Shown: piece by piece, positions 1,709 to 55,884 of the stretch
Numbering within the stretch: position 1 is the stretch's first letter
How the letters are laid out: every line of letters begins with the position of its first letter
IMG/VR virus record: IMGVR_UViG_3300036766_001530
Direction: 5' to 3' (one strand)
DNA length: 56,938 bases
Source: an uncultured virus (IMG/VR IMGVR_UViG_3300036766_001530)
Lineage: Duplodnaviria > Heunggongvirae > Uroviricota > Caudoviricetes
Notes under the pieces: model-generated
Told to the model about the DNA's origin: nothing
The model's input: only the letters and a program-made list of their open reading frames with translations
Databases searched by the model: none
Program-made: the position numbers and the translations under genes

Positions 1709-1811
1709 TCGTCAGTCCACTGCCGCCGTCTCGGAGGCCAAGAGTTGGTAGCCTTCCGGGTGCGAAAGCATGAGTCGCGGAGCGACGAATTCCGCTCCGG
1801 TCCGGTCCGAT

Positions 1812-2096
1812 TCATTCCACCGCCGCCGTCTCAGGAACGAGAAGCTGATAGCCCTCCGGGTGCGAGAGAAGCTCGGGGAACATCTCGGCCAGTCGCAGGC
1901 TCTCACAACGACGAAGCGTCTCTGGCGATCCACCGATCTCGACTTCGTAGGCTTCGCAGTCGTCCGAGCAGGTGCAGGTCCCCGACACGATGCGGACGGC
2001 TTCGGCGTAGCGCCAGGGACCGCGGCCCGTGAGCAGCCGGCCGATTTCCCTGTAGTCGAGGTCCAGACCGAGACGGGGCGGCATTCCGGAAACCAC
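1812..2096 (-). CDS. Small hypothetical protein
   Basis: 94-aa ORF; its 3' end is duplicated at 1712-1770 with mostly synonymous changes, implying coding constraint. Confidence 0.6.
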   Translation of the reverse strand: MVSGMPPRLGLDLDYREIGRLLTGRGPWRYAEAVRIVSGTCTCSDDCEAYEVEIGGSPETLRRCESLRLAEMFPELLSHPEGYQLLVPETAAVE

Positions 2097-4463: not shown

Positions 4464-4661
4464 CGTGAGCCGCGAAAGTGAGTCGCGAAGCGGCGAACTC
4501 CGAGTCCGATCCGGTTTCTCCGACGACGTCTTCTATTACCTTGTCTATCCCAACTTGCGCCCATGCTGTAAACGCGGCATGGTGAGCCGCGAAGCGGCGA
4601 ACTCCTGATCCGGTCCGGTCCGGTTTAACCCCGTTCCTTGCCCCGGCTCGTCCAAGCCTCC

Positions 4662-4690
4662 TTGCAGTCATGCTGTAAACGCGGCATGAT
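4662..4690 (+). promoter_or_regulatory. Possible sigma70-like promoter
   Basis: TTGCAG-17 bp-CATGAT just upstream of 4697; a truncated sister copy lies at 4555-4581. Confidence 0.35.
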
Positions 4691-4696
4691 CCAACC

Positions 4697-8827: not shown

Positions 8828-8921
8828 TTGCCGCCATGCCGATGCCCATGATCCAGTTCGGTGAGCTGCGAAGCAGCGAACTCCGCTCCGGCTCCGGTCC
8901 GAACCATCAGGAGATCACCTG

Positions 8922-10328
8922 ATGCCGATGCCCACGATCCAGTTCAAGCTCAAGCTCTTCCGGGGCGACTGGGACCAGGCACGTTCGCAGGTCGCTCTGC
9001 TCTGGCTCATGGAGGCGCTCGTCCGCCAGAACCAGAGCCACATCCGGCAGTTCGTCTCGCTCGCCAAGCGCGGCATCATCAAGGAGCCGTACCCGCGCCT
9101 CTATCGCGCAGGTGTCCACTACGAGCGCGAGCCGCCCGGCCAGGAAGTCTGGCCGGATGTGCCGACCATCCTGGAGACCAAGGACGGCGAGTTCTCCGGC
9201 CCCTGGGGCGACTGCTTGCCCGTCTCGACGCTCGTCGCCAAGTACAACGACAAGGGCGACGCCCAGATGTTCCCCTTCGGCTCGCTCAAGATCGGCGATG
9301 TCATCGTCGAAGGAGGACCGTCTCAGATCGCTCCAACCGGGCGCACAATGGTGCTGGAATTCGCCGAGACTGGCGAAAAAGAAATCATCGCTTTCCGCCT
9401 GGCCCACCCCTACGGAACTCCAAGAACACTCCGCTGCTCACCAGAGCACAAACTCTTCCTCCTCGAAGGTGAAAAGGAAGTCAGAGCCAAGAATGTAAGG
9501 CCCGGCGATCAGCTCCTCGGAGGAAGCAACGGCAAGTACGGGGGGCTCAAAGTCATCGAGATCACCACTCCGGGGAAAGAACGCTGCGCCGACATCAAGA
9601 CGGCCAGTGGTCGCTTCTGGCTTCCGGAATCCGACGCCATCGTCCACAACTGCGAAGACCTTGCATGCTGGCGCACGGCCGAGCTGCGCGAGCTGGGCAA
9701 CATCAAGGCCAAGCCATTCGCCAAGTGGCGCTTCGGCAAGAGCGGCAACTACCACTACCACGCGCTCACGCTTCTGCCCGACGGCCGACTCGAAGATCCG
9801 AGCCTGACGCTCGGCATGGGCCGCGAGGCCTTCTTCGCCAAGCACGACATCGTGGATCGCTACAAGAAGGGCGAGCTGAAGCCCCTCGTCATGTTCGCCA
9901 AGCTGCCCGACGTCATCGTCGTCGATCCGGAAAAGCCGACCGGCTACTCGGGCGGCAAGGCCGACTACTACCAGCAGGGCGTCTCGGGAACCGGTGCCCG
10001 CCCCGACGAGCTGGCCGCCTGGGGATACGACCACAACGATGTCCGAGGTGCCGACATGGCGGCCCTACGAGACATGACCTCCGGCATGAGCCGCGTCGAC
10101 CACATGGGCTCGTTCTCGGCCATGACCCAGCTCCCCGACATCTCGACCGCCGACATCGTCATGGGCGGAGCGCGCCACAAGATCGTCTCCAAGCACGAGC
10201 GCGAAGTCGACGACGACGGCAATACGCTCGACGCCATGATCGGCTGGAACGGCAAGACCTTCGTGCCACGCTCGGACGCCGAGGCCATGCGCCGCCTCAT
10301 GGGCTACGGGGCCGGAGGAGGTCGCTGA
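8922..10328 (+). CDS. Transglutaminase-like cysteine protease (putative maturation protease), intein-containing
   Basis: After splicing it reads WGD-CEDLACWRTAEL...YHALTLLPDGRLEDPS, a Cys-His-Asp triad in transglutaminase-like context. Confidence 0.75.
   Translation: MPMPTIQFKLKLFRGDWDQARSQVALLWLMEALVRQNQSHIRQFVSLAKRGIIKEPYPRLYRAGVHYEREPPGQEVWPDVPTILETKDGEFSGPWGDCLPVSTLVAKYNDKGDAQMFPFGSLKIGDVIVEGGPSQIAPTGRTMVLEFAETGEKEIIAFRLAHPYGTPRTLRCSPEHKLFLLEGEKEVRAKNVRPGDQLLGGSNGKYGGLKVIEITTPGKERCADIKTASGRFWLPESDAIVHNCEDLACWRTAELRELGNIKAKPFAKWRFGKSGNYHYHALTLLPDGRLEDPSLTLGMGREAFFAKHDIVDRYKKGELKPLVMFAKLPDVIVVDPEKPTGYSGGKADYYQQGVSGTGARPDELAAWGYDHNDVRGADMAALRDMTSGMSRVDHMGSFSAMTQLPDISTADIVMGGARHKIVSKHEREVDDDGNTLDAMIGWNGKTFVPRSDAEAMRRLMGYGAGGGR
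9213..9650 (+). mobile_element. Mini-intein, 146 aa, no homing endonuclease
   Basis: Starts CLPVSTLV; block B LRCSPEHKLF; VRAKNVRPGDQL; ends IVHN followed by extein Cys. Confidence 0.92.
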
Positions 10329-10935: not shown

Positions 10936-10936
10936 C

Positions 10937-12622: not shown

Positions 12623-12640
12623 GGAAAGGACACGAAGACC

Positions 12641-13282
12641 ATGGGCAAAGAACTTGTAACGGCCGGCGACATCGCGAGTGGTGAGGTCGGCTGGGACCTC
12701 CTTCATCTCTTCCGCCGCTCCGACACCAACACCAAGCTCACGACCGGTCCCGAGATCGCGCGAGCCCTCACGGCTTCCGAGATCGCGGACTGGATCGAGG
12801 GACGTCGTGGCAACATCGCCCACAAGCAGTCGGGCGTGGCCGCGCTGCGCTCGATGCAGGAGCGCGCGAACGCGGGCGATCAGGATGCCGCAATCGCCGC
12901 CGGCATGATCGAGCACTTCCGCCAGAACCCGGTCCGCCCTCCCGCGTACATCTACCGCAACGCCTTCCGTCGCGCTTCGCTCGCCGTCGCCCAGGCGAAA
13001 ACCCAGAACGAGGCCGCCTACAACTACGCCAAGTTCGTGAAGAGCTACAACGAGGCCGTCGCCGGCAAGGACGTCACGCTCGCCAACCTCTACGCCGAGC
13101 GACTCGCCCAGATCCGGTCCCAGTTCGGCGACAACATCGGCCAGCTCGCCGTGCAGCGGGGATTCATCTCCCCAACCGACACCAACACCTTCGCGGCCAA
13201 CGTCTCCGCCGCCAGCAAGCCCGGCGTCGCCGGCATGTTCGGCGCCCTCTGCGGCGCTGACACCTACTCGAAGGGTCTCTGA
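12641..13282 (+). CDS. Core-like protein with C-terminal tag
   Basis: Ends GMFGALCGADTYSKGL. Confidence 0.8.
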   Translation: MGKELVTAGDIASGEVGWDLLHLFRRSDTNTKLTTGPEIARALTASEIADWIEGRRGNIAHKQSGVAALRSMQERANAGDQDAAIAAGMIEHFRQNPVRPPAYIYRNAFRRASLAVAQAKTQNEAAYNYAKFVKSYNEAVAGKDVTLANLYAERLAQIRSQFGDNIGQLAVQRGFISPTDTNTFAANVSAASKPGVAGMFGALCGADTYSKGL

Positions 13283-13746
13283 TGGCCTACGGACGGGACG
13301 AACTCGAAGCGATGAGCGAAGGAGGCATCGAAGGCGATGCCTTCGTCGGCTCCTTCTGGGGAGGGGTCAAACACATGGCCCACGCCCCCAGGCTCCTCGT
13401 CGAGACGATGGTCGCCCCACTCGACTGGGCTGGTCGGAAGATCGGACTGCCGCACGCCAAGAAAGCCCGCTACTTCGATCACTACCAGTTCCCGAACGAA
13501 GCACAGCTCAACCAGGCCATCGAGAAGCTGCGAGGAGCCGGGCTCGTCGCTCACCGGTGGTACCGCTTCGACCGCGGCCCACAGCGACCGACCCTGACCA
13601 CCAACGCCACCATGAAGCAGATCATCGCCCTCAACATCGGGGGCTACCGAGTGCCCTGGCAGAAGGGGCGCACCGACACCACGCGCGCAGAGGCCCTGAA
13701 AGAGCCGACTGGCGTGCGTGGTAGCACGTACACGAAAGGACTCTGA
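13282..13746 (+). CDS. Core-like protein, GDAFVG family
   Basis: MAYGRDEL...EGDAFVG-SFWGGVK; ends TYTKGL. Confidence 0.8.
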   Translation: MAYGRDELEAMSEGGIEGDAFVGSFWGGVKHMAHAPRLLVETMVAPLDWAGRKIGLPHAKKARYFDHYQFPNEAQLNQAIEKLRGAGLVAHRWYRFDRGPQRPTLTTNATMKQIIALNIGGYRVPWQKGRTDTTRAEALKEPTGVRGSTYTKGL

Positions 13747-13749
13747 GAC

Positions 13750-15021
13750 ATGTCGTACAGCAGGGACGAACTCAAGGCGATGGATGGCGAGGGTGTCGAA
13801 GGCGACGCCTTCGTCGGCGACCTGCGCGGCTTCCAGAGCACCTCACCTCAGGGCTTCCGCAGCTCAACTCGTCCCGACTGGTTCAACTCGGTGCCGCGCG
13901 ACAATCTCGGCGGCGAGACCGAGATCGAAGCCGGTCCCGAAACCCAGGCGTTGAGCATCCTCGGCGACGAGATGGGCTCCGCTTGGGGCAAGATCAAGAA
14001 GTACGGCAGGAAAGCCGGCAAAGGCGCCTACAAGTACGGCAAGAAGGTGGGCAAGGTCGCCTTGGCTCCCCAGCTCGCCATGTACAAGTACAGCAAGAAG
14101 GCGCTGGCGGCGATCAGCTCGGCCTCCATGTGGCCGATCAGGAAGTCCGCGCGCAAGCACATCTTGAACACGGCGATGATCTACGCCAGGGCGGGAGGCC
14201 GAGCGAAGCCCGACAAGAACGACAAGAAGCGAGCCAACGCCGCCGTCATCGCCGTCATGGCAAAGGCCCCGGGACCCAAGGGAGCGCTCCTCAAGTCGGG
14301 GGCGTACCTCCTCAAGAAGTTCGGCACCGGCGTCTCGGGCATGTCGGGCGACATCTTCATGGGTTACGAGGCCTACCCCGAGTACATCAAGAACGCCGCT
14401 GCCAGGAGTCTCATCGCCCAGGGCAAGCTGCCTCCTGGCACCAAGATCCTCGCCAACGAGCTGACCGGAAGCGGCGTCGATCCGAAGGGCTACCACATCC
14501 GCGGCCAGATCACCTATCCCAACCCGAGAGGCGGCCACTATAGCTTCTCGTACAAGGTGAGGATCAACCCTGAAATCGAGAGCATGGACGGCGACGCCTT
14601 CGTCGGCCACGACGAGGTCGGCGCCGTCGTCATCGCCAGCGGCCTTCTCGCCGCCGGCATCGCAGCCGCCATCATGGCCTCGGGCGCTCTCATCGCCATG
14701 ATGGCCACCTCGTACGCCAAGAAGCAGATCGGAGCACCCGGTGGCCAGCAGCTCGGACCACCTCCCGAGGGTGGCGAAGGAGCCCCGGGCGAAGGAGCCC
14801 CGGGCGAAGGTGCCCCGGGTGGTGAGGGCGGAGGGGCTCCGGGCGAGGGAGCCCCGGGTGGTGGCGAAGGCGGCGAAGGTGGTGGCGAAGGTGGCGGAGC
14901 CCCCGGTGAGGAAGGAGCGCCTCCCGAAGGTGGCGAAGAGGGCCCGCAGGACGAATCGTCCGGCATCGAGTCGCTCATGGGCGGCTTCTGCGGCATGTCC
15001 TGCTACCGGAAAGGACTCTGA
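13750..15021 (+). CDS. Core-like polyprotein, GDAFVG family, with TM segment and GEGAP repeats
   Basis: Two GDAFVG motifs; ends GIESLMGGFCGMSCYRKGL. Confidence 0.85.
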   Translation: MSYSRDELKAMDGEGVEGDAFVGDLRGFQSTSPQGFRSSTRPDWFNSVPRDNLGGETEIEAGPETQALSILGDEMGSAWGKIKKYGRKAGKGAYKYGKKVGKVALAPQLAMYKYSKKALAAISSASMWPIRKSARKHILNTAMIYARAGGRAKPDKNDKKRANAAVIAVMAKAPGPKGALLKSGAYLLKKFGTGVSGMSGDIFMGYEAYPEYIKNAAARSLIAQGKLPPGTKILANELTGSGVDPKGYHIRGQITYPNPRGGHYSFSYKVRINPEIESMDGDAFVGHDEVGAVVIASGLLAAGIAAAIMASGALIAMMATSYAKKQIGAPGGQQLGPPPEGGEGAPGEGAPGEGAPGGEGGGAPGEGAPGGGEGGEGGGEGGGAPGEEGAPPEGGEEGPQDESSGIESLMGGFCGMSCYRKGL

Positions 15022-15125
15022 TCCCACATGGCCTTCGATAAGGATGAAATGGTCCTCGACTCCTCGGGCGACGGTGAGCCGCGAAGCGGCGAACTCTGCT
15101 CTGGTCCGAACAAAAAGGAAGTCTG

Positions 15126-15839
15126 ATGGCCTTCGATAAGGATGAAATGGTCCTCGACTCCTCGGGCGACGAATCCGTCGCCTGGGAGACGGTCGGCCTT
15201 ATCACGCCTCCAAGGCCCACGCCTCGCCCCGGGTGGGTACGAAAGCTCATCCACCGATGGGCGTTCGCTGCCAGGCGATCTGACCGGGCCCGTGCCGAGG
15301 GCGACCAGGAGCGATCCGCATCAGCTCAGCGCCGCATGGCCAGAGTCAACCGGAACTACCAGCAGGTGACCGGCCGCTCCGACATTCGGGCGCGAGCCAT
15401 AGCGATGGGGCTCTACCGGCCGGCGCCACCCCCGCCACCACCACCTCCACCGCCGGCCTACGATCCGTACGCTCAGCAGTACGGGCAGCCCGACTCCTAC
15501 GCCTCGGCATCTCCTGACGATCCGTACGCCCAGTACGATCCGTCGACCTACGATCCGAACATCGCTGGTAACGACGTCGGGGCCGTCTTCTCACCCTCGA
15601 CCTGGTTCATGACCAAGGCCGAGGAGAGCCTCCACTGGGAGAAGAAGAAGGCAGCGACCGACATCAAGGCCGCCAAGGAAATGGCCTCCCTCCGCCAGCA
15701 AGAAAAGGCTGCCTTCGAGGAGGCCGCCTCTGCCAGGAAGGGGATCGAGGAAGCCAGGAAAGCCGCCGGGATGGCAGGAATCGAATCCATCATGGGTGGT
15801 CTCTGCGGCACAAGCTGCTATCGGAAGGGACTCGACTGA
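15126..15839 (+). CDS. Core-like protein, MAFDKDE family
   Basis: MAFDKDE...SGDE; poly-Pro; ends GIESIMGGLCGTSCYRKGLD. Confidence 0.8.
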   Translation: MAFDKDEMVLDSSGDESVAWETVGLITPPRPTPRPGWVRKLIHRWAFAARRSDRARAEGDQERSASAQRRMARVNRNYQQVTGRSDIRARAIAMGLYRPAPPPPPPPPPPAYDPYAQQYGQPDSYASASPDDPYAQYDPSTYDPNIAGNDVGAVFSPSTWFMTKAEESLHWEKKKAATDIKAAKEMASLRQQEKAAFEEAASARKGIEEARKAAGMAGIESIMGGLCGTSCYRKGLD

Positions 15840-16498
15840 TGGTCTTCGATCGAGACGAAAAAGCTCTTGCCATGCACGGCGACGAAATCGCCGCATGGCA
15901 GATCGGCATGCGGGCCCAGGCGTCGCGGGCCCCGTCCTTCCGTGGGCCCGTGGCCATGGGACCAAGCATGCTGTCGCCGCTCGCCCCAGCTCAAAGACCA
16001 TACGCCCCATCGCTTCCGCAAGCGCCGTACCCGGGTCCATCCCCATACGCCAGCTCACCTCCTGATGATGGTGGCGGTGGCGGCGGTGGCGGCGGTGGCG
16101 GCGGTGGCGGCGGTGGCGGCGGTGGCGGCGGTGGCGGCGGTGGCGGCGGTGGTGGTGGTGGCAGTGACACCCCGGCCAAGGGCGGAGAAAAAGAAGCTCC
16201 CGGGGCCAAGGGAGAAGAGGCCGCTCCAGATCCGACCCAGATCGAAGCCGCCAGGGCCACGCTCGAAGCGGCAAATGCTGGCGACAAGAAAGCCCAGGCA
16301 CTCATCACCACTGCGACAAAGAACGCCCAGTCCGGAGATCCGGCGGCGATCTCCGCCATGAAGGCTCTCGACGCCGCCGCTACCGGCCCCTCCCCCGAAA
16401 CTGATCCTGAGAAAGCCAAGAAGGAATCCGGCGTGACCGGAATCGAATCCATCATGGGCGGCCTGTGCGGCACGAGCTGCTATCGAAAGGGACTCTGA
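15839..16498 (+). CDS. Core-like protein with poly-Gly tract
   Basis: MVFDRDE...GDEI; about 30 Gly; ends GIESIMGGLCGTSCYRKGL. Confidence 0.8.
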   Translation: MVFDRDEKALAMHGDEIAAWQIGMRAQASRAPSFRGPVAMGPSMLSPLAPAQRPYAPSLPQAPYPGPSPYASSPPDDGGGGGGGGGGGGGGGGGGGGGGGGGGGGGGGSDTPAKGGEKEAPGAKGEEAAPDPTQIEAARATLEAANAGDKKAQALITTATKNAQSGDPAAISAMKALDAAATGPSPETDPEKAKKESGVTGIESIMGGLCGTSCYRKGL

Positions 16499-16881
16499 TG
16501 GCCTTCGACAAAGACGAAGAAGCCCTCCGCCTCAGCGGTGATGAGATCGGAAGCGTCTGGGGCAAGATCAAGAGCGGGACTCGGAGTGTCGGCCGCGGCG
16601 TGCTCCAGGCTGGCCGCGACCTGCGCGACGCGAGCATCTTTTCCCAGCGCTACGAGTATCTCTCACCGACCTACCGCGACTCGGTGAAGACCCTCAGCCG
16701 CAAGCTCCGTTACATCAACGAGAACCTCCCTGGAGCTATCGAGAACGCAAAAAAGCATCCGGCCCGAGGAACCACTCGCTACGCGAAGATGCTCACGAGC
16801 GATCGCAGGCTCGCCATCGTGTTGCTCGCCAGGAAGGGCGTCAACGTCTCTGGTGACGATCCCATGGAAGGGGAGTTCTAA
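16498..16881 (+). CDS. Core-like protein, MAFDKDE family
   Basis: MAFDKDEEALRLSGDEIG-SVWGKIK; TGATG coupling. Confidence 0.8.
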   Translation: MAFDKDEEALRLSGDEIGSVWGKIKSGTRSVGRGVLQAGRDLRDASIFSQRYEYLSPTYRDSVKTLSRKLRYINENLPGAIENAKKHPARGTTRYAKMLTSDRRLAIVLLARKGVNVSGDDPMEGEF

Positions 16882-17513
16882 TGGCATTCGACAAAGACGA
16901 AGAATCTCTCCGCCTCAGCGGCGACGAGATCGGCTTCTCGACGCCAAGGTGGCTCAAGAACATCGGCCGCGGCAGCTCTGGCGCCGCGCAAGCGGTCGTC
17001 CGGCACATCGCGGCCAACCCCAAGACCTACATCACCGCGGCTGCCCTGCTCACGGCCGGCGCCGCCGCGCCGATCATCATCGCGGCCATGAAACGCGACG
17101 AGGCCGCCGCTTCATCTCCCATTCCCGAAGCACCAGCTCCTCAGGAGACGACTGCCTCGGCTCCTTCGCCCGATGAGCCAACCGCAATCATCGGCCGCGG
17201 TCGTGGTGGCGGACGCGGCGGCGGCGGCGGAATGCGTCGCCATTTCGGCCATCGCGGCCGTGGCTGGGGAGGCTGGGGTGGTGGTCCGTGGGGCTACGAC
17301 GACTATGGCGATCCGTTCGTCTCGCCGGTCTTCATCGAGCGGCCGAATGTCGATTCGATGTTCCCGACTTCCGAGGACGAACCATCCTCTCCCAACCCCA
17401 AGGCTGCCCAGCTCGCCAGCCTCCGCTCGCAGTACAACGCGGCCAAGAAAAAGGGCGACAAGAAGCTGACTGCGACTCTCGGACAGCGTATTCTGGCTCT
17501 CACCACCTCTTAA
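16881..17513 (+). CDS. Core/membrane protein, MAFDKDE family
   Basis: MAFDKDEESLRLSGDEIG; hydrophobic helix; RGG-rich segment. Confidence 0.8.
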   Translation: MAFDKDEESLRLSGDEIGFSTPRWLKNIGRGSSGAAQAVVRHIAANPKTYITAAALLTAGAAAPIIIAAMKRDEAAASSPIPEAPAPQETTASAPSPDEPTAIIGRGRGGGRGGGGGMRRHFGHRGRGWGGWGGGPWGYDDYGDPFVSPVFIERPNVDSMFPTSEDEPSSPNPKAAQLASLRSQYNAAKKKGDKKLTATLGQRILALTTS

Positions 17514-17796
17514 CGAGGTACTTCAACCATGGAACTCTCTCGCATCTTCAATCGTGAGTCGCGAAGCGACGAACTCCGGTTCCGGCCCGGTCCGAACTGA
17601 ACTCCAAAACGAAAGCAACTTCAAACTGACCACGTCCTCTTAGACGAGGTACTTCAACCATGGAACTCTCTCGCATCTTCAATCTTTGGGCGAACAAGTG
17701 AGTCGCGAAGCGACGAACTCCGGTCTGGTCCGATCCGGACTGGGCCCCAAGGCAACTTCAAACTGACCACGTCCTCTTAGACGAGGTACTTCAACC

Positions 17797-20700
17797 ATGG
17801 AACTCTCTCGCATCTTCAATCTTTGGGCGAACAAGGGCAGCAAGCCCGAGCCCGAGCCCAAGGCTCACAATCTCCGTCCCGCAATCTCCATCCGCAACGA
17901 GGGTGACAAGGTCTGCGCGACACTGAGTCTCGACACGGCGCAGGGCAAGCGCGAGTACACCGCGTGCGTTCTGCCCTCCGAGGTCGAGGAGATCCGCAAG
18001 CTCATCTACGACTGGGTCCACCATCGCAACACCGCCGCTCTCGCGAAGATGCCCGAGCACGCAAGACTCGCCGCGACCACTTCGCTCGGCGAGTCGGAAA
18101 CCCTCAACCCCTTCGAGAAAAGTGAGCCGCGAAGCGGCGAACTCCGGTCCGGTTCCGGACAAAAGACCAAGCAGCTCGACCCCGGCGAGACCATGACCCC
18201 GTCCTGGGCCAAGTCCGGCAAAAGCCCCGCCATCCCCAAGAAGACCGCCACCTACGATCCGGACGCTCTTCTGCCCATGGCTGACGGCCGCAAGCTCAAG
18301 GGCAAGGTCACCAAGGCCCCCTTCGATCCGGACGCTCCTCTTCCCGTCTCCTTCACCAAAAAGAAGGACTCCAGGCACGGCGCGGCGACCGCAGCCGTGA
18401 CCGATCCGGACGCTCCGATGCCCATGTCGACGTCCGGCGACTCCATCACGATCCTCGGTCAGGACGCGGTCGACCAGATCGCCGAGAGCCACATCCGAGG
18501 ACTCGTGCTCGACCGCCTCGACAAGGCCGCCCCCAAGGGAGCCATGGAAGCCGTCGCTCGTCTGGAACTGTCTCGTCGCGTGACGACGAGCGGCGCCGGC
18601 TTCCATGAGGATGACGCTCTCGACACCCAGCCCGGGGAGCCCCGCGACGTCCTCCTCGACTTCGGCCCGGACACGACCTTCCTCGACGACTCGACGCACG
18701 AAGCCGAGATGATGAAGAAGATGAACCAGGGCACGAGCGCGATCGACAAGACGCTGCTCGATCAGATGTACGGCGAACTCCGCTCCGATCTGTCCGGAAT
18801 GACCGCCCTCGAAAAGGCCGCCCTCGGAGCCACCGCGGGTGTCGCGACCGCAGCCCTCGTCCGATCGGCTCAGGAGGCCAGCGCCTTGCGAGAGAGCAGG
18901 GGCCTGGCAATGAAAGCCCCTCCGGAAGAGAGCGACTTCATCGTCGGCATCGACCTCGAAGGAGCCTTTGTCGGCGAAAAGCAGATCCTCTCTGGAACCA
19001 TCGAGCCAATCGTTTCCGACGGCAAGACCGTCGGCTGGAAACTCCCTGACCAGGGGATCGCCAAGCGCCTGAAGAAGACCGACTCGAAGCACTCCAAGCG
19101 GTTCGTTCCAGATCGTGACAAGGAAAAGCTCGCCCTCGTCAAGCAACTCGAAAAGGCGCTCGTCACCCGACGCGCCAACTACCTCGCGTTCCAGAAGGGC
19201 GCCGCCAAGCCGACGCCGATCCAGATCGCCAGCGCCAAGACCTGGGCCGCCGCCAAGATCAAGAAACACGGCCTGCCCCTGCCGGCAAGCGCCGTCATCG
19301 GAGAGGCCACCTTCTCGGCGCTCCCGCAGGGCGTCTTCTGGGACCCGAAGAAGGGCGCCCTGCCCGGCACCAACCCGCAGACCGGCCGCTACGATGCTCA
19401 GTACCCAGCCCCAGATCCGCGCACCGCTTCCACGTCCCCGCTCCCCCAGCCCGGCTACACGTCGCCACTCGCTCGGCCCGGCTACACGTCGCCGCTTCCG
19501 ATCGCCGCCCCCTCGTATCCCAGAGCCTTCGCACCCATCACGTACCCGGGGGCCCGCCGACCACTTCCCACCTCCCCTGCCGCCATGCAGTTCCGACTGC
19601 CCCCCGGCCCCCGGCCATCGGCTCCCATCATGGCCGCTCTGCAAGTCTGGCACGGAGCGAACCGAGGCAACCAGTTCTACCGCCGCGAGGTTCTCGCCGC
19701 CAAAGCAGACGAAGGCCGTGGTGTGCCTCTCGCGCGCCAGCGCATGAACGAGCTGCGGGCCGCCAGATCGTGGTGGCGGAAGCGCATGCGCAAGCGACCC
19801 GTTGCCCATGGTCCGATGGGTCCCGCGTCCATCGCCGCGCTGGCCGCTCGCAGATACACGTCCACGGCCAGGGCGGCTATGATGGGTGCGACGGGAGCCG
19901 CTGCCGACAAGCGCCTCGGTCCCCTGCCCTCCAACGCCTTCGCCGGCATCGAGGACTGGGTGCTCGACGCGCTCATCCGTACCCGCGCGGGCGAGAAGGC
20001 CGCCTGGGTATCCATCAACTCGGTGGCCAATCGCCCCGAGGTCGCGGCGGCAATCGCTGCCGCCACTGCGCGGCTTGCGCTCCAGACTCCCGGCAAGACC
20101 TGGAAGTCGCCCAACGGCTACGCCTACAAGCTCTCGCCGGACGGGAGCTGGGTGCGCCTGCCCGGCAAGCCGGCTGCAACCTCGACAGCCATGGGACTCT
20201 CCGCCGTGGATCTCGATCCTCGCTCCTGGTTCTGGTGGAGCAAGGAAGAGACCGCCCTGCGCAAGAAGCGGCGCGAGGCGAGGGCTCGCTCCGAGCAGCT
20301 CGAAAAGATCGCTCCCATCGCCCAGGAGACCGTGGCACTCCGGGCCAAGAGCGCCGAGATGGAGAAGATCGTCCAGGAGGCTCAGTCGTCTGGCGATTCG
20401 CTCACCGGCTCTCACGTGCCCGGCCACATCGACGAGACCGGCACCTGGCCGGCCACGACGGCCCCGATCGAATCCGAGCCTCCCGCCACTCTCGACACTT
20501 CGCGGGCTCCTCTCATCACCTTCCTCGGCACCTGGTGGAACCCGACGACCTGGTTCAAGAAGAAAGCCGAGGAGACCCTCAAGGACTCCGAGGTCGAAGC
20601 TCCTCCGAGCGTGCCCCAGATCGTCGTGATTGATGACCAGGACCAGGACCAGGACCGGGACCAGGACGACCGGGACCAGGACCAGGACCAGGGCGACAAT

Positions 20701-23700
20701 AGCTACGACTACGACGACGCGAGCGGTGTGAGCGCTCTCGACGTCATGCGCGTGCCCGAGCAGATCATCCGATCGCTCGCGGCTCCCAAGCCCGCGCTCT
20801 CTCACCTCACGTCGCTGACAGCACCAGCCCCAGTGGCTCCCGCTACGGCTCCCAGGACCGGCGCCCGAACGGCCCCGGCCTCGACGGCCGCTGCCCCGAC
20901 CACCAAGCCCAAGTACGAAGAAGAAGTGAACGAAGGAGACATCACCATGGGTCACGAGAACGAGGAAGACATGAGGGGTGTCGATGGTGATGCCTTCGTC
21001 GGAGACGATGTCGGCTTCGGCTTCGGCGATCTCATCAAGTGGCCTCTCAAGGGTGTCGAGCGCGTGCTGACCGGCACCTACTACGGAGCCAAAGGCTTGA
21101 CGCTGGGCACCTACAAGGGCGTCCGCTACGGGACCGACGAGCCCGGCAAGAAGCAATCGCCCATGGAGAAGCGCGCTGCGGCTCGCAAGAAGAAGCGTGA
21201 AGCCGCCGCCAAGCGCAAACTGGCAGCCGCCAAGCGCCAGCGGGCCGCCGTTGCCCAGCAGCGTGCCGCTCGTGCCGAGCGTGCCGAGGAGCGCGCCGCT
21301 GCCCAGGCCGAGGCCCGAGCCGCCGCCGCCGAGGCCGCCGCTGCCGAAGCCGAGGCTGGCGATCTCGAAGCTGACGCTTCCGAAGCCGGCCCGGACGCCG
21401 GGGCCCCGGACGAGGGCGAGAGCATGGACAACACCACTTCGGAGGGCGACGCCTTCGTCGGCGCCGAGGCCGTCAAGAAGGCCCAGGCGAAGCTCCACCC
21501 GGCCGCCAAGAAGTATCTCGGACCAGCGGCCAAGGTCGCCGCCACTGCCACACCCGCCGGGGCCCAGATCCGAGCTGGCCAGGAGTTGTACAAGGCCGGG
21601 AAGAAGGGCCACCCGCAGGCGAAAAAGGCCATCGAGACCATCGCCCAGAAGGCCACCGAGGGTCACCCGCAGGCGAAGAAGGACATGGCTGCCCTCCACG
21701 CAGGCCGCCAGGCAGAGATGGAGATGAAGACGGCCCGCAAGGCCGATGTGGCCATCAAGAGAAAAGACGCCCAGCAGAAGCGCCAGGTCTCGCAGCGCAA
21801 GCACGTCGAACTGCTCGCGCTCTATGGGGCGGGCGTGACGGTCCCCCAGGCTCCACGAGATCCGGCTAAGCGCCGCTTCAACGCCGCTCTCGAAGCGGAC
21901 AAGAAGGTCGCCGCGGGCGATCCGAAGGCTCGCGGCGAAAAGGCCATCATCGACGCCGCCGCCTCCCAGGGCAATCCAACGGCCAAGAAGATGCAGAAGG
22001 AAGCGGCGGTCGCCCGCGTCGTCAACCAGCAGACGAAAACTCCAGAAGATCGCAAACGGTTCGCCGCCGCGTACGCGATGTACAAAGATCAGAACAAGTG
22101 GGGCCATCGTGGAGCGAAGGCGAGGGAGGGCCTGAAGTTCATGTACGACGCCGCTGCCGCTGGCGATCCGAAAGCCATCAAGGCAATCGACGCGATGAAG
22201 GCTGCCATCGCCGCCGACATCGCCATCAAGGGCAAGAAGCACGAGGTCTACGCCTCCCGCAAAGAAAAGATGGAGAAAACGCGCCCGGCGTCTCCCACCA
22301 AGAAGATCGAGAGGATCGATCTGGAAGCGGAGGCAAGGCCCGACGTCGGCTACCCGATCTTGCGCCTGGGCGCAACCGGCGCAGCGGTAGGCAAGCTCCA
22401 GGGCCAGCTCAACACCGCGGGCTTCGGTCCCCTCAAGATCGACGGGGCCTTCGGTCCCGGCACGAAGAAAGCCGTCATGCGATTCCAGGTGTCCCGCCGG
22501 CTGCCCGCCAATGGTGTCGCCGGTCCCAAGACGCAGCAGGCTCTCTCGGCTGCTCCGTCAGCTCCCGCGCCCCTGGTCGCCAGAAAGGATGAAAGCGTCG
22601 AGCAGCTCATGCAGAGAGCGACCGGCGGAAAGAAGCCGGCCCCGGTCGCCACGCCGACCGCTCCCTCGATCACCACTCTGCGTCTCGGCTCTCATGGCCC
22701 GGCGGTCGGCAAGCTCCAGGGCCAGCTCAACACCACCGGTCACTGGCCCCTCAAGGACCCTCTCAAGATCGACGGCGTCTTCGGCCCCAGCACTCGAACT
22801 GCCGTGATGGGATTCCAGAAGTCGCATGGGCTCACGCCTGATGGCGTCGCCGGCCCCAGGACGCTCGCGGCTCTCTCGGCCGCTCCGCCAGTTGCCCCGC
22901 CTCTCGTCGCCAGGAAAGTTGCTCCCACCGGAGTTGACCCCTGGGCTACCGCACAGGTTCCGACCTCGATCGCCGTCCTGCGTCTCGGCTCTCGCGGCCC
23001 CGCGGTCGGCAAGCTTCAGGGCCAGCTCAACACGGCCGGCTTCGGACCCCTCAAGATCGACGGCGCCTTCGGCCCCGGCACAAGGAGATCCGTTGTCCGG
23101 TTCCAGGCCTCCCGCAAGCTCAAGCCGGACGGCATCGCCGGCCCGCAGACGCTCGCGGCCCTTGCGGCTACTCCGCCGGCCTCGCCCGCCGTTGCGGACG
23201 TCCGGAAGATGGTCGAGAAGCACAAGGGCGAGACCGTTCCCACTCCCAACAAGATCGACCAGTCGAAGTTCTCGCCCGCCGCGCAGCAGAAAATCGAGGA
23301 AGCCAAGCGAGATCCGGCCGTGAAAGAAGAGATCAGGACCACCCAAAAGTCGGTCGAGAAAGCTCTCGCGGGCGATCAGACCGAGGCGCTGAATGTGAGA
23401 GAGCAGGCCAAGAATCCTGCCACGTCCGGCATCACCGAGGTCGCAACCGCTCTCGCCGCCTCCAAGGCTCCTGCCGGCACGTTCCCTGGTAGTCCCGGCG
23501 GCCCTGGTGGTCCCGGCGGCCCTGGTGGTCCCGGCGGTCCTGGAGGTCCCGGCCCGGTGCCTCCCGAGATCGCCAAGCAGCTCTCCACCCCCGACGGCAA
23601 GATCAACCTGGCGGCCCTACCTCCTCCGGCCCGGGAGGCCGTCATCACCGCCCAGCACGATCCTGAGGCGGCCGACAAGCTCGCGAGCAACGCCAAGATC

Positions 23701-24354
23701 CTGAAAGATGCTCACGCGAATGTTCCGGGAGCACAGGACAAGGTCGACGAGGCCATGCAGAGCCCAGACACCGCCGCCGGCATGGCGGCAGCCACCGCCT
23801 TCCTCGCCGCCAAGCAGCGGCGAGCGGAGTCCGGCCTGCCCCCGGCCCCGATCGCCACCACCGGCAAGCCCCTTGGAGCTGGAGGTCCCGCTCGCGAGAC
23901 CATGACCCCTCCCGAGTTCGAGGAAGGACCCTCGGCGACCGAACCATCACCAGCCGCCGTCCAGGCAGCCGTCGAAGCAACCCCGGACGCCGCAAGAAAG
24001 ATCGACCTATTCAATGCCGGAGATCCGGCGACGAAAAAGGAGTTCGCCGAGGCCGCCAAAGTCCTGAAGGCCAAGGAAGCTGGCAACCCCGCCGCCAGGG
24101 ATCTCATCAAGCAGGCCCAGAAGGACGCGGACGAAGGCCACAAGCCGGCCAAGGAAGCTCTCGCGACCTTGATTGGCGTCCAATACCTCATCATCATCCA
24201 CAAGGGACGCAAGCGCACGAAGGCCGCCGAGCAGCTCGCGCAAGCGATACCAAGCCGTGCGGAGTTGCGAGTGATGGAACCAGAGGCGTTCGGCCACTGG
24301 TACACGGGGCCGTTCTCGACGTACCGCAACGCAGTCCGCATGGGATGGAGCTGA
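17797..24354 (+). CDS. Giant 2185-aa virion protein with three peptidoglycan-binding (PG_binding_1-type) domains
   Basis: Three LRLG..G.AVGKLQGQLN..G...IDG.FGP.T...V..FQ....L..DG.AGP.T units at about 22360-23165; GDAFVG motifs; DQ and GGP low-complexity tracts. Confidence 0.85.
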   Translation: MELSRIFNLWANKGSKPEPEPKAHNLRPAISIRNEGDKVCATLSLDTAQGKREYTACVLPSEVEEIRKLIYDWVHHRNTAALAKMPEHARLAATTSLGESETLNPFEKSEPRSGELRSGSGQKTKQLDPGETMTPSWAKSGKSPAIPKKTATYDPDALLPMADGRKLKGKVTKAPFDPDAPLPVSFTKKKDSRHGAATAAVTDPDAPMPMSTSGDSITILGQDAVDQIAESHIRGLVLDRLDKAAPKGAMEAVARLELSRRVTTSGAGFHEDDALDTQPGEPRDVLLDFGPDTTFLDDSTHEAEMMKKMNQGTSAIDKTLLDQMYGELRSDLSGMTALEKAALGATAGVATAALVRSAQEASALRESRGLAMKAPPEESDFIVGIDLEGAFVGEKQILSGTIEPIVSDGKTVGWKLPDQGIAKRLKKTDSKHSKRFVPDRDKEKLALVKQLEKALVTRRANYLAFQKGAAKPTPIQIASAKTWAAAKIKKHGLPLPASAVIGEATFSALPQGVFWDPKKGALPGTNPQTGRYDAQYPAPDPRTASTSPLPQPGYTSPLARPGYTSPLPIAAPSYPRAFAPITYPGARRPLPTSPAAMQFRLPPGPRPSAPIMAALQVWHGANRGNQFYRREVLAAKADEGRGVPLARQRMNELRAARSWWRKRMRKRPVAHGPMGPASIAALAARRYTSTARAAMMGATGAAADKRLGPLPSNAFAGIEDWVLDALIRTRAGEKAAWVSINSVANRPEVAAAIAAATARLALQTPGKTWKSPNGYAYKLSPDGSWVRLPGKPAATSTAMGLSAVDLDPRSWFWWSKEETALRKKRREARARSEQLEKIAPIAQETVALRAKSAEMEKIVQEAQSSGDSLTGSHVPGHIDETGTWPATTAPIESEPPATLDTSRAPLITFLGTWWNPTTWFKKKAEETLKDSEVEAPPSVPQIVVIDDQDQDQDRDQDDRDQDQDQGDNSYDYDDASGVSALDVMRVPEQIIRSLAAPKPALSHLTSLTAPAPVAPATAPRTGARTAPASTAAAPTTKPKYEEEVNEGDITMGHENEEDMRGVDGDAFVGDDVGFGFGDLIKWPLKGVERVLTGTYYGAKGLTLGTYKGVRYGTDEPGKKQSPMEKRAAARKKKREAAAKRKLAAAKRQRAAVAQQRAARAERAEERAAAQAEARAAAAEAAAAEAEAGDLEADASEAGPDAGAPDEGESMDNTTSEGDAFVGAEAVKKAQAKLHPAAKKYLGPAAKVAATATPAGAQIRAGQELYKAGKKGHPQAKKAIETIAQKATEGHPQAKKDMAALHAGRQAEMEMKTARKADVAIKRKDAQQKRQVSQRKHVELLALYGAGVTVPQAPRDPAKRRFNAALEADKKVAAGDPKARGEKAIIDAAASQGNPTAKKMQKEAAVARVVNQQTKTPEDRKRFAAAYAMYKDQNKWGHRGAKAREGLKFMYDAAAAGDPKAIKAIDAMKAAIAADIAIKGKKHEVYASRKEKMEKTRPASPTKKIERIDLEAEARPDVGYPILRLGATGAAVGKLQGQLNTAGFGPLKIDGAFGPGTKKAVMRFQVSRRLPANGVAGPKTQQALSAAPSAPAPLVARKDESVEQLMQRATGGKKPAPVATPTAPSITTLRLGSHGPAVGKLQGQLNTTGHWPLKDPLKIDGVFGPSTRTAVMGFQKSHGLTPDGVAGPRTLAALSAAPPVAPPLVARKVAPTGVDPWATAQVPTSIAVLRLGSRGPAVGKLQGQLNTAGFGPLKIDGAFGPGTRRSVVRFQASRKLKPDGIAGPQTLAALAATPPASPAVADVRKMVEKHKGETVPTPNKIDQSKFSPAAQQKIEEAKRDPAVKEEIRTTQKSVEKALAGDQTEALNVREQAKNPATSGITEVATALAASKAPAGTFPGSPGGPGGPGGPGGPGGPGGPGPVPPEIAKQLSTPDGKINLAALPPPAREAVITAQHDPEAADKLASNAKILKDAHANVPGAQDKVDEAMQSPDTAAGMAAATAFLAAKQRRAESGLPPAPIATTGKPLGAGGPARETMTPPEFEEGPSATEPSPAAVQAAVEATPDAARKIDLFNAGDPATKKEFAEAAKVLKAKEAGNPAARDLIKQAQKDADEGHKPAKEALATLIGVQYLIIIHKGRKRTKAAEQLAQAIPSRAELRVMEPEAFGHWYTGPFSTYRNAVRMGWS

Positions 24355-24357
24355 CCA

Positions 24358-27069
24358 ATGGGCTACTCGAAAGAAGAAGCTGGCGAACTGCAACGAGCGA
24401 AGGCCCTGCCGGCGCGCTTCCGCTCGGAAGGCGACGCCTTCGTTGGTCTGTCGATGGGGCCCCGGCATTCCTGGGGACCATCTTCCGAGATGGCCCGACG
24501 TGCTCGTCGAGCCGCACGCGCGGCTCGCACCGCGGCGCCCTCTCCGTTGATGCCGGCCGAGATGCCCAAGCCCAAGAAGAAGCACAAGAAGCGGCACTGG
24601 TGGCAGAAAGCCTGGTCCGGCGTCAAGGACGTGGCCACCTTCATCCCCGCGCACGGGGGTGAGATCGCCAGGGGCATGATGACCGCCGCCTCGGCCGCTC
24701 CCATGCTGATGCGGGGCGAAGGATCTGAAGAGGACATGCGGGGTGTCGAGGGTGACGCCTTCGTCGGTGACGACTTCATGGGCGATGCCTTCGTCGGACG
24801 TTTCAGCCGCGACGAAGCGCAGGCCGTCGCTCGCGACGGCGCTCTGCCCTATCTCGACGACATCTACCGTGGTGGCCGTGACGAGCCAGTCGAAGCCGGT
24901 CCGCACGACATCGTGATCTCAGAGCAGGACGAGTTCCTCGGTGACATCGACGGCGACGCCTTCGTTGGCGCATACACAGGCACGGCGACCCGACGGGGGC
25001 TCATGCGCAAGTGGTCCACCAACAGGACTCGCAAGCGCATCACCGGGCAGGCTGGCGACCGGCAGAAGGAAGCCTGGCACATCCAGCAGATGCGCGAGGC
25101 GCGACTGGAATGGAGGAAAGCCGGATTCCGGCCAAGATCGATCAAGAGGGCCTCCATGGAAGCCGGTCTCTACACTCCGATGGCTGGCGACTCCGTCGAC
25201 GGCGACGCCTTCGTAGGAAACGACGAAGCTGCCAGGCACCGCAACATCGAGGCTCGCAACCTCGCGGCCGGGCTCGTCTCCTCAGATCCGGCGATCGCAC
25301 GCGACGCGAAGGAGACCTTCGCCGTGCTCGAACGTCGATCCCAGGTCGATCCCGAAGCCAAGAAGACGGTCGAGGGCGTGCTCTTCTTCAAGAAGCGGCT
25401 CGAAGCCCGGGGACCCCAGGATGTTTTGAGCGGCGGCGACAGCCCGGATGACCTCGTCAAGCGATGGGGCGAGGAAGCCAATCGCCTCATCAAGAACCCC
25501 CGCCACGGCAACATGCAAGAGCTGGAAGAAATCGCTCGTCGTTTCCGATCTCTCGTTCCCAGAGGAACACCGCCCATCGGCCTGCTCGCGAGCAAGCAAG
25601 GTCTCGTGAATCTTGACGCCTATCGCGAGGCCGTCACGAGATGGAACGCCTTTGCCGGCCCCGAGAGGAATCCGAACGACATGATCTCCGGCGAAGAGGA
25701 CGACCGCAAGCACGCTGCCATCTACAAGGCGGCCAAGGCCGGCGACCCGAAAGCTCTGCTCGAAGTCGATCGCTTCGTCGGCAAGCGCCTGTCGCAGGGC
25801 CTCGCCTCTGGCGACAAGAAGATGATCGCGGCCTACAAGACGCTCAAGGCTGAGGCCGACAAGGGCGACAAGCGCGCCGCCCGCGTGATCCACTTCGCCG
25901 ACACGGCCGAAATCGAAACCGACATCCCGAACGTCTCAGGTGACGCCTTCGTCGGCTCTCACCATCTCGAAGAAGCCAGGGTCCTCCTGGCCGCTGCGAA
26001 CGCCGGTGACGAGAAGTCCCGGAACCTCATCCTGACCGCGGCCGAACACGCGCAGGCCGGCAACCCCGCAGCAATCAAAGCGATGAAGACCCTCAACAAG
26101 GTGGCAAGCAAGATGAGTGGAGATGCTTTCGTCGGAGCCTATCGTCCCCAGGCGGGCGGCAACCGCCAGGCGATCCTCGACCAGTGGGTCCGCAACTACA
26201 AGATCAAGCACGCCAACCCCAAGGGCTCGCCCCAGTGGAAGAGCGCCAAGAAGTACATGAGCGGCGCCTACAAGGCCTGGAGGAAGTCCGGCTTCCAGCC
26301 GAAGCACATCAAGATGGCTGCCAGATCCTCGGGACTCATCTCCGGCGACGCCTTCGTGGGCGTCTCGGCCTACGGCGGCTACAGCGTCGCCGAGGCCGGG
26401 GCCATCATCAAGGCCGCCAAGATGGGCAACCCCAAGGCTCGCGGGCTCATGAAGATGCTGTCGCTCCACGCCAAGCAGGGTCACCCGGAAGCGAAGCTCG
26501 CCGTCCAGGCCCTCTACGCCGCGGACAAGGTCAGCAAGATGAGCGGCGATGCCTTCGTGGGAGATGAAGCGAAGCCCAGCCCGAAGATGATGGAGCACCT
26601 CGCCCAGATCGCCCGCGGCCTCGACTCGACCGACGAGGGAACCCGGGGCACCGCGCGATCTGACTACCACAGCTACGTCGAAGCCTCCCGCGGGGGCGAC
26701 AAGCGAGCCGGAGCCTACACCCAGATCATCGACAAGCTGCGCGGCTCCACCGAGTCAACGGTCGCTCGACCTCGCACGACACAGAAGGACGTGCTCACCG
26801 CCTCGCTCGGCGCCATCTGCGGCGCGGATGCCTACCGCATGGGCCTTGCCACCGGAGATGAAGAAGGGGTCTTCGACTCCGAAGACGGCCCGAAGGACAC
26901 GCTCGACCCGTTCTTCAACCGCCCGATCAATCCCTACGACGACGCCGTCGAACCGGCCGAAGACATCGCTCTCGACAACGCCGCCACCATGCCCGAGAGT
27001 GTCGCGTCCCTCTCCGGCATCATGGGAGCCTTCTGCGGCACCCGCGGCTGCTACCGGGCGGGGCTCTAG
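24358..27069 (+). CDS. 903-aa putative polyprotein with nine GDAFVG motifs
   Basis: Nine motifs counted in the translation; ends GIMGAFCGTRGCYRAGL. Confidence 0.85.
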   Translation: MGYSKEEAGELQRAKALPARFRSEGDAFVGLSMGPRHSWGPSSEMARRARRAARAARTAAPSPLMPAEMPKPKKKHKKRHWWQKAWSGVKDVATFIPAHGGEIARGMMTAASAAPMLMRGEGSEEDMRGVEGDAFVGDDFMGDAFVGRFSRDEAQAVARDGALPYLDDIYRGGRDEPVEAGPHDIVISEQDEFLGDIDGDAFVGAYTGTATRRGLMRKWSTNRTRKRITGQAGDRQKEAWHIQQMREARLEWRKAGFRPRSIKRASMEAGLYTPMAGDSVDGDAFVGNDEAARHRNIEARNLAAGLVSSDPAIARDAKETFAVLERRSQVDPEAKKTVEGVLFFKKRLEARGPQDVLSGGDSPDDLVKRWGEEANRLIKNPRHGNMQELEEIARRFRSLVPRGTPPIGLLASKQGLVNLDAYREAVTRWNAFAGPERNPNDMISGEEDDRKHAAIYKAAKAGDPKALLEVDRFVGKRLSQGLASGDKKMIAAYKTLKAEADKGDKRAARVIHFADTAEIETDIPNVSGDAFVGSHHLEEARVLLAAANAGDEKSRNLILTAAEHAQAGNPAAIKAMKTLNKVASKMSGDAFVGAYRPQAGGNRQAILDQWVRNYKIKHANPKGSPQWKSAKKYMSGAYKAWRKSGFQPKHIKMAARSSGLISGDAFVGVSAYGGYSVAEAGAIIKAAKMGNPKARGLMKMLSLHAKQGHPEAKLAVQALYAADKVSKMSGDAFVGDEAKPSPKMMEHLAQIARGLDSTDEGTRGTARSDYHSYVEASRGGDKRAGAYTQIIDKLRGSTESTVARPRTTQKDVLTASLGAICGADAYRMGLATGDEEGVFDSEDGPKDTLDPFFNRPINPYDDAVEPAEDIALDNAATMPESVASLSGIMGAFCGTRGCYRAGL

Positions 27070-33935: not shown

Positions 33936-35182
33936 AGATTCAACCCCAGACCCCTGCCAAGGGAGGGCGATACCTCGTCGGCTTCGGAGGGCCACAAGGA
34001 CCTGCGGCTCTCGGCTCGACAGACATGGAAGCGACCGCCATTGCCCGGGCCACCAACATTGCCAAGGCGATCGGCCCCATCGGCTTCGGCACCGTCATCG
34101 ACCGCTTCAAGGGCACCGCCTGGCAGTGGAAGATGGCGACCGACGGCACCATCGGCCGGCAGGGCATCAAACTGCCCGACGGTGTGACCGGCGTGCTCCT
34201 CGGCGCAAGCCTCGGAGGGGATCTATCCGAGAACGAAGCCCGCCGCCGGCTCATCGCCGCCATCATGAGGAAGCGCGGCGGCGAGGCCTCCGTCATGGGC
34301 ATCCCACTTTCGGTCGCGCTCGCGCCGCGCTACTGCGTGTGCCTCCACTTCCCGGGCGGCGCGGTCCCGGTGTGCTGCTCGCGCAAGAGCCTGCCCGCCG
34401 TGACGCTGGCGCGTCAGATCGCCCAGGGCGCAGCGGGCTCCAAGATGTTCACGCTCGTCGTCGATCGGCAAAGCCGCCAGGGCTGGATGTTCAAGCCGGA
34501 CGCCAAGGGCCACGTCATCGCCTCGGGAGCCGGCCTGCCATCCGTCTCAGGTTGGCACGGTGAGTCGCGAAGCGACGAACTCCGCTCCGGATCTGGACCA
34601 AGAGTCTCAGGCTGGCACGAAGGCCGAGCCCACGTCTCCGGCCCACTCGGCGAAGCCGCCGCCGCGGGCGCCGCCGGAGGTGCAGCAGCCGGCGCCGCCG
34701 CCGCCGCGATGACCGCACTCATCAATCTCATCAGCCGAGCCTTCGCCACGAAGAAGCCGTCCGACGCTCGCAAGGCCGCCACCTACGCCGAGAAGACCGG
34801 CAAGCCGAAGACCGCTGCGAGCCTGCACGAGACAGCAGAAAAATTCGAGACCAATCAGCCCACATCCAACGACTCCGAGTCCTCCGACTCCAGCTCGACC
34901 GGCTGGGACCCCACGACCACCAGGACGCACACCATCTCGCAAGCGAAGCTCGAAGCCTTCTTGCTCAAGCAGAAGAACAGCAACGGCTTCGGGATCATGA
35001 GCTACGGACCGATGGGTGAAGTGTTCGAGATCCGCTGGGAGCCCATGACGCCGGTTCCGGCCCTCCCCTCCGAGGTCGTCGACTCATCGAACCGCAGCTA
35101 CCCGATCATCATCCTGCCGACCTACCGGGCCGTGGCTTACTCGGCGCCGCGAACCCTCACCGACATCAAGATCGAAAGGTGA
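33932..35182 (+). CDS. Hypothetical virion protein with in-frame hairpin element
   Basis: 416-aa ORF; VSGWH-[element]-VSGWH; TGKPKTAASL motif. Confidence 0.75.
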   Translation: MKIQPQTPAKGGRYLVGFGGPQGPAALGSTDMEATAIARATNIAKAIGPIGFGTVIDRFKGTAWQWKMATDGTIGRQGIKLPDGVTGVLLGASLGGDLSENEARRRLIAAIMRKRGGEASVMGIPLSVALAPRYCVCLHFPGGAVPVCCSRKSLPAVTLARQIAQGAAGSKMFTLVVDRQSRQGWMFKPDAKGHVIASGAGLPSVSGWHGESRSDELRSGSGPRVSGWHEGRAHVSGPLGEAAAAGAAGGAAAGAAAAAMTALINLISRAFATKKPSDARKAATYAEKTGKPKTAASLHETAEKFETNQPTSNDSESSDSSSTGWDPTTTRTHTISQAKLEAFLLKQKNSNGFGIMSYGPMGEVFEIRWEPMTPVPALPSEVVDSSNRSYPIIILPTYRAVAYSAPRTLTDIKIER

Positions 35183-55608: not shown

Positions 55609-55884
55609 CAAAGCTCTCCCCGCGTCGCTCTTCTGCCGGGAAGAGCGACACGGGTTCAATCCTGTCATCCGGCCAAAACCCACCACTCGGGGACGGTGAG
55701 TCGCGAAGCGACAAACTCCGATCCTCTCTCCCCCGTCCCAACAGTCAACCAACTCAAATAGTCCAAACCGCTTCACGCTCTGGCCGGGAAGTGCGACGCG
55801 GGTTCACTCCTGTCATCCGGCCAAAAACCACCGCTCGGGGACGACCCCCACGAAGTTTCCAGGCGGAAGAAAGAGAAAAGAGTC

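Follow-up and report, generated by a model that had tools for sequence, protein, structure and literature searches.

The window analysed here (56,938 nt, roughly half of a 118,938-nt contig and, judging from the lengths, probably its last part; IMG/VR record IMGVR_UViG_3300036766_001530) is part of an undescribed bacterial virus. It carries three copies of the ribosome binding site (RBS) and start of a giant gene for a protein with peptidoglycan-binding domains. The first two copies are cut short by a hairpin element, of which 28 copies are present in the window. This triple start is probably the scar of two successive insertions by the hairpin element, acting as a small, non-autonomous mobile unit that duplicates a variable length of its target.

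Anatomy of the triple start

A 41-nt string comprising the RBS and start occurs at 17513, 17644 and 17781 (ATGs at 17529, 17660 and 17797). Copy 1 stops exactly at the element at 17554, and copy 2 extends a further 13 nt to stop exactly at the element at 17698 (Table 1). Between copies 2 and 3, 83 nt match exactly, as does one further G that also belongs to the element, such that 17615–17698 corresponds to 17752–17835. The frame opened by copy 1 enters element 1 and reaches a stop at 17598–17600 (23 aa). An earlier note on this DNA, made from the sequence alone, had described three starts with the first two capped by hairpin elements, and had proposed two successive events in which flank, element, a step back and resumption follow each other. 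The three copies and their caps are as it described. The tails support the two events: those of elements 1 and 2 align with a score of 29, compared to scores of up to 31 and 39 against other tails. As neither tail is closer to the other than to the tails of further copies, elements 1 and 2 are two separate units. A tandem re-copy of element 1 as the source of element 2, favoured by a transition-only alignment, is ruled out by these scores.

Contigs of two public runs were placed on positions 16200–22200, one run (X1) being the probable source of the record, and thus not independent, and the other (X2) coming from another study. In X1, five unique pieces across the locus have depths of 9.67, 13, 14.4, 9.28 and 8.1, with 11.4 downstream, and the piece common to copies 2 and 3 has a depth of 27, about 2.5 times as much. 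All unique junctions are therefore near genome depth, indicating that the reads contain the structure about once per genome; the contigs leave the triple unphased on one molecule. The earlier note had considered that reads might contain a single copy as a result of misassembly, and this is not what X1 displays.

The X2 strain is about 90–93% identical at the locus, at a depth of 3.6. A single 177-nt X2 contig joins 17513 to 17783, giving one start with a copy-1-like upstream end, i.e. an empty site. Hence, by parsimony, the 269-nt block is best read as an insertion in the window lineage. Depths at the element positions are 1.3, 0.8 and 2.1 in X2, compared to 72, 108 and 156 in X1, the X2 contigs being too shallow to show absence. 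An X2 contig aligns up to 18089 while its last 25 nt do not, the break falling 32 nt before element 3, and the in-frame region 18090–18121 may differ between strains. At the element 3 site itself, two homologues at 30–35% identity differ by 3 and 12 residues, and a short-protein search for an empty site of element 3 found none. Other X1 contigs compared with 17578–18158 begin and end in elements, some with only 18–28 nt between two copies, indicating that further copies and short arrays lie beyond it.

A hairpin family with step-back duplications

A structural scan of the window gave 34 matches, of which the 28 with the family stem were kept (those at 26832, 28832, 35630, 49504, 52434 and 52454 were dropped). 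Five shuffled windows gave 0–2 matches each. A truncated 29th copy is located at 4465. The core is a 21-nt hairpin with pairs 1:21 and 2:20, GA/GA internal pairs and five more pairs, closed in 25 of the 28 copies by a GAA or GGA loop (GRA triloop). Tandem G.A pairs are stable, and in two copies they are replaced by Watson-Crick pairs. Both sides vary in a compensatory manner in four of the nine stem pairs (17 cells, compared to 0 of 500 shuffles and 0–2 in slid controls), and fifteen hairpin variants with compensatory changes are present. A GNA loop closed by a sheared G:A pair is a single-strand DNA fold (PMC5449611). As judged from the sequences, the hairpin is a DNA-type fold.

A tail of one to five TCCG or TCTG units, with spacers of 1–3 nt or longer, directly follows the hairpin and is itself followed by filler. 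Tail similarity falls weakly with distance (Spearman −0.20, with pairs not independent), no consistent second hairpin occurs in the tail, and no source was found for the fillers elsewhere in the window (longest matches 8–11 nt, the level seen in shuffles). The + strand, which codes most genes, carries 24 of the 28 copies. In 19 of 28 copies the base three positions ahead of the hairpin is an A (p = 9e-8, uncorrected). Four copies lie 1–2 nt past stop codons and several ahead of an RBS or tRNA; others are in frame within open reading frames (ORFs), and one element is interrupted by another copy. The window end falls inside an element tail, as an assembly break would also give.

The left flank recurs 59–147 nt downstream in 8 of the 28 copies, over a length of 16–83 nt, and a similar score is reached at 7 of 795 random sites. 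This spread of lengths agrees with the view of the earlier note that the repeats are unlike a fixed-length target-site duplication. The inserts of the eight copies so delimited are 44–90 nt long, their right ends being defined by the start of the duplicate. For the elements at 8861 and 15074, the frame of the false start continues across the element to a TGA overlapping the true ATG, an arrangement of gene junctions native to the window genome; such coupled frames are found at two of the four gene-start events.

Table 1. Coordinates of the triple-start locus and of the other step-back duplications, in window positions
Feature	Position	Strand	Duplicated length (nt)	Remarks
Upstream gene	16881..17513	+		210 aa, ends RILALTTS and stop; stop adjoins RBS of copy 1
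Copy 1, false start	17513..17553	+		RBS, ATG and 8 codons
Element 1, hairpin	17554..17574	+	41	21 nt, 9-bp stem with tandem G.A pairs, GAA loop
Element 1, tail and filler	17575..17614	+		TCCG-N units to about 17594, then A/C-rich filler
Resumed leader	17615..17643	+		last 20–30 nt weakly like upstream gene end (LTTSS-stop vs LTTS-stop)
Copy 2, false start	17644..17697	+		RBS and ATG; 13-aa frame ends at TGA within element 2
Element 2, hairpin	17698..17718	+	83	identical to element 1
Element 2, tail and filler	17719..17751	+		unlike element 1 tail
Copy 3	17752..17835	+		exact repeat of 17615–17698, bears working RBS and ATG
Giant gene	17797..24354	+		2185 aa, three peptidoglycan-binding domains
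Element 3	18122..18142	+		in frame within giant gene, no flank duplication
Sister event, element 15074	15028..15171	+	46	false start; true start 15126
Sister event, element 8861	8836..8945	+	24	false start (1 mismatch); true start 8922
Sister event, element 34560	34544..34619	+	16	in frame in ORF 33932–35182; one synonymous difference
Elements 4465, 4478 and 4582	4465..4688	+	20 (4582)	truncated 4465, then directly full 4478; 4582 with 20–28-nt duplication
Sister event, element 55696	55620..55843	+	61	diverged duplication of about 61–76 nt
Sister event, element 1770	1715..1868	+	20	diverged duplication: 20-nt core, longer weak alignment

Outside the window, the family has a narrow distribution. 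Neither the 80 loci (817 kb) examined around capsid-like gene homologues nor a 194-kb relative (G001) yielded a copy. Exact patterns had no match in viral or metagenome contigs, although such patterns miss diverged families. A loose pattern had one match in viral contigs, without a tail, and genome contigs gave one match, with a broken stem pair and no tail; both are judged chance-like. A blastn search of phages with the element gave a best E of about 0.9 only, and Rfam matched nothing in the window besides tRNAs. We found no published description of the element in the literature covered, which includes few subscription journals.

Additional sites touch on the family. At 323–408, an element truncates a tRNA-like sequence after its 5′ part, and a complete tRNA-Val comes next; this could be the false start of a tRNA gene. 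At 2998–3633, an HNH gene (3029–3610) lies between two inverted elements with tails outward, as repetitive extragenic palindromic (REP) sequences do around RAYT genes. The HNH gene was considered as an autonomous partner and rejected, with hairpins in 0 of 17 loci of its homologues (34–43% identical). A 19-nt leader motif in the 55696 duplication (55800–55830) recurs near the window end (56810–56835). The frame that follows element 4582 (4679–4957) has no Pfam match; it resembles the N-terminal part of AP2/HNH-type homing endonucleases.

Probable insertion and its alternatives

In the insertion model that we favour, the mobile unit would consist of the 21-nt single-strand DNA hairpin, the ragged (TCCG-N)n tail and filler, 44–90 nt in total. 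Its 5′ edge, the foot of the hairpin, would be joined precisely to the 3′ end of the target with a weak preference for A at −3, while the variable 3′ end would be resolved between 0 and about 83 nt upstream, leading to duplication of the target. Element 1 would have landed 25 nt into the gene, duplicating the RBS and start. Element 2 would later have inserted 38 nt inside the copy that had by then become the working one, and the resulting duplication of 83 nt, still exact, takes in the leader of the first event. Insertions at the 5′ end of a gene would survive only with the RBS re-created (17554, 17698) or with the false start coupled to the true one (8861, 15074), and we infer that this acts as a survival filter. 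The giant gene would thus have survived both insertions because its start signal was re-created.

With only one end precise, we lean towards a one-ended target-primed or strand-transfer reaction over two-ended, ordinary cut-and-paste. A staggered cut, as in the insertion sequences IS1549/IS1634, suits the duplication lengths but clashes with the missing inverted ends. HUH strand transfer, as in REP/RAYT, suits a single-strand hairpin but clashes with the missing tag. Target-primed copying suits the asymmetry of the ends. Break capping followed by template switching, the process proposed by the earlier note, is one form of target-primed copying; it is improbable here, and no enzyme, genome end or intermediate was found.

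Several observations weigh against insertion by a mobile element. The empty site is available for one locus only, from the one contig at depth 3.6, and kinship among the copies inflates the covariation counts. The other 20 of the 28 copies have no duplication, near or far (long-range step-backs were searched for and none found), and the copy at 4478 has the truncated element as its left flank. Fresh duplications should be identical throughout, yet seven of the eight pairs differ at or near their 5′ side, and at 17554 the leader diverged while the neutral 41-nt false start stayed exact. Furthermore, no transposase family, DDE type included, and no HUH or reverse transcriptase family was found among the 209 frames of the window.

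The leader had been suggested to be a diverged version of the upstream gene end, and the resemblance is weak (alignment p = 0.02–0.05 by shuffling), with three synonymous changes and one codon indel in the last five codons. It was also asked whether the resumed copy matches the allele of another strain; none of three relatives provides a match. The upstream end in X2 is copy-1-like, with 4 differences in 50 nt and no gap, and two homologues (69% and 53% identity) keep RILA..TS, ending in RILAFATS and RILALATS. The leader is best taken as an eroded or older 20–30-nt extension of the duplication. Its divergence needs an extra step: element-free strains may later have supplied the left flank by exchange, or the leader may derive from a donor.

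Since the exact false start stands beside the diverged leader, time alone offers no explanation, and this is the main evidence for a model in which the repeats are junctions between alleles. In that case a transferred strand, with the element as its precise 5′ end, would bring its downstream flank of leader and gene start into the homologous locus of another strain, with the other end resolved by homologous recombination, and the two copies would be two alleles rather than a target duplication. This would fit the copies at 4582, 8861, 15074 and 17554, which agree beside the element and diverge further 5′, the synonymous differences at 17554 and 34560, and the right-hand leader at 15074, which is like native stop-start junctions of paralogues. 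We nevertheless consider it unlikely: the 83-nt and 46-nt copies are exact though X2 differs by about 7–9% nearby, neither X2 nor the two homologues have an allele like the resumed leader, and the 16-nt in-frame event is more simply explained by target duplication. More doubtful still is capture of a genome terminus, a concrete version of the break capping in the earlier note, in which hairpin and tail would form the terminus or origin of a linear genome replicated by protein priming. A 3′ end left by a break would prime on a free terminal template, copy hairpin and tail, and jump back to its own template. The precise 5′ edge and the repetitive, telomere-like tail are in keeping with this, as is the DNA_pol_B_2 polymerase encoded by the 194-kb relative. 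The terminal-protein telomeres of Streptomyces bear GNA-loop hairpins with sheared G:A pairs whose 7-nt core is that of the GGA-loop variant (PMC5449611). However, fifteen compensated hairpin variants need many selected templates and not one terminus, and no such hairpin is present in the G001 record (88% complete, without end repeats). If this improbable account were true, the hairpin would be a selfish telomere or origin of a protein-primed jelly-roll bacterial virus, whose polymerase heals broken or stalled 3′ ends by copying the hairpin and TCCG tail and then returns to the genome. Interstitial telomeres that themselves serve as templates would then let mobile DNA arise in a phage without a transposase.

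Two further explanations carry very little weight. The hairpin could be a transcription or processing signal at gene borders, similar to PeSL cassettes, with repeats made by recombination between signals; the strand bias towards coding and the copies placed just past stops or ahead of an RBS or tRNA would be expected of such a signal. Recombination between signals gives no false starts cut at new positions, though, and copies also lie within ORFs. No promoter-like sigma-70 site was seen in the region scanned (17300–18300, three copies), and the element is missing at the same gene borders in relatives and, for the triple-start locus, in X2. We therefore regard a regulatory cassette as very improbable. 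An assembly artefact or a collapsed allele mixture is the hardest of all to credit: a short-read graph cannot phase 41-nt and 83-nt repeats, but coverage of the unique junction pieces is about 1x genome depth and that of the common piece about 2.5x, the two tails are unlike each other, and there are seven sister events.

Known mobile hairpins and the virus

The insertion model can be compared to several known systems. IS1549 and IS1634 produce target duplications of very unequal length, 8–514 bp, for which there was no model as of 2008 (PMC2266710). The element resembles the IS1634 family in its long, variable target duplications. That family consists of autonomous 1.5–2-kb units with a transposase and inverted ends, whereas the element is 44–90 nt with one precise and one ragged end. 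Two features are common to IS1634 and miniature inverted-repeat transposable elements (MITEs). Of these, terminal inverted repeats are lacking, with 1–5 of 14 terminal bases complementary in the eight delimited inserts, and target-site duplication is seen in 8 of the 28 copies and missing in the other 20.

REP, BIME and REPIN sequences are 20–40-nt polar DNA hairpins present in many copies between and inside genes (PMC3733652), and the element is like REP/RAYT in being a multicopy short DNA hairpin in both locations. An HUH strand transfer has been described for REP/RAYT (PMC3333891, PMC6006769, PMC3733652), and strand transfer can build tandem and variable REP units (PMC3333891). The GTAG/CGTC tag of REP/RAYT is absent here, as the four bases before the 9-bp stem vary and the GTGA/ATGA start is the stem itself. 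Unlike the inverted doublets of REP/RAYT, the element is mostly single and co-oriented, with a repetitive tail and long duplications, and no Y1 transposase was found in the window or in G001.

Non-long-terminal-repeat (non-LTR) retroelements and short interspersed nuclear elements (SINEs), which move by target-primed reverse transcription, have one precise and one truncated end, variable duplications and a repetitive tail. The element has the same end asymmetry, tail and duplications, but a DNA-type fold on the inserted strand, and no reverse transcriptase was found among the window frames or in G001. Target hairpins of diversity-generating retroelements have a GRA loop. This class was rejected, as the differences between copies are not confined to adenines and no reverse transcriptase was found.

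The same 7-nt core with GNA triloop and sheared G:A pair occurs in Streptomyces telomere palindromes and N4 hairpin promoters (PMC5449611); by comparison, the present hairpins lie at scattered internal sites and are specific to a lineage. PeSL cassettes of T4-type phages are repeated intergenic stem-loops tied to genome change (PMC2839356). They include a promoter and rearrange ORFs through homologous recombination; false starts or target duplications are not ascribed to them in that source, whose text lacks the word 'duplication' (PMC2839356). Pithovirus M1/M2 and viral MITEs are lineage-specific invasions by palindromic non-coding repeats with no certain transposase (PMC10664404). They differ from the element in their 47–54-bp terminal inverted repeats and putative 2-bp TA duplication (PMC10664404).

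The window carries 11 tRNA calls, the HNH gene, and peptidoglycan-binding and SLT domains. One protein is capsid-like and jelly-roll-like, with 501 homologues. In the window virus and its group it matched no Pfam or PHROG structural family, and a fold search with its model gave jelly-roll-type matches only at Z up to 7.9, below the confident level. The family B polymerase of the protein-primed type (DNA_pol_B_2) is present in G001 and not in the window. A genome of 194 kb is unusually large for this type of polymerase. In 150 of the 161 long ORFs of G001 that were scanned, neither a reverse transcriptase nor a Y1 transposase was found. G001 (L083–L092) also encodes TROVE/Ro60, an RNA ligase, a major-vault-like protein, a Cas12f/TnpB-like protein and many glycosyltransferases. 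Two related loci (L019 600–1100; L020 1–1100) carry a CRISPR-like array with a 36-nt repeat about 9 kb from the capsid-like gene.

Within 7273–27069 of the window, many structural-looking proteins have repeated GDAFVG-like motifs and common N- and C-terminal ends (paralogue families MAFDKDE... and ...CYRKGL), which is suggestive of protease processing sites. ORF 8922–10328 has a weak intein-domain match. Positions 38564–48777 contain runs of short genes with near-identical starts (MSKFEDSFQKA... and MAH.H...CL...) and unrelated bodies. Two orphan ORFs gave no usable Atlas match.

On the sequence evidence, the element behaves as an invader of the REP or MITE kind that makes long, IS1634-type duplications, while lacking the ends and tag that define either class. 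The novelty appears to lie in the family itself, with a stem of DNA type and a tail of repeats, and in its presence in a group of phages that have protein-primed polymerases. The element touches on the spread of short palindromic repeats and on the origin of long target duplications of variable length. To both questions the virus contributes 28 copies within 57 kb, of which eight have junctions that can be read, together with a double, nested event and one site that is empty in a related strain. The element also bears on how a compact genome would tolerate such insertions, through an RBS that is re-created or a false start that is coupled to the true start.

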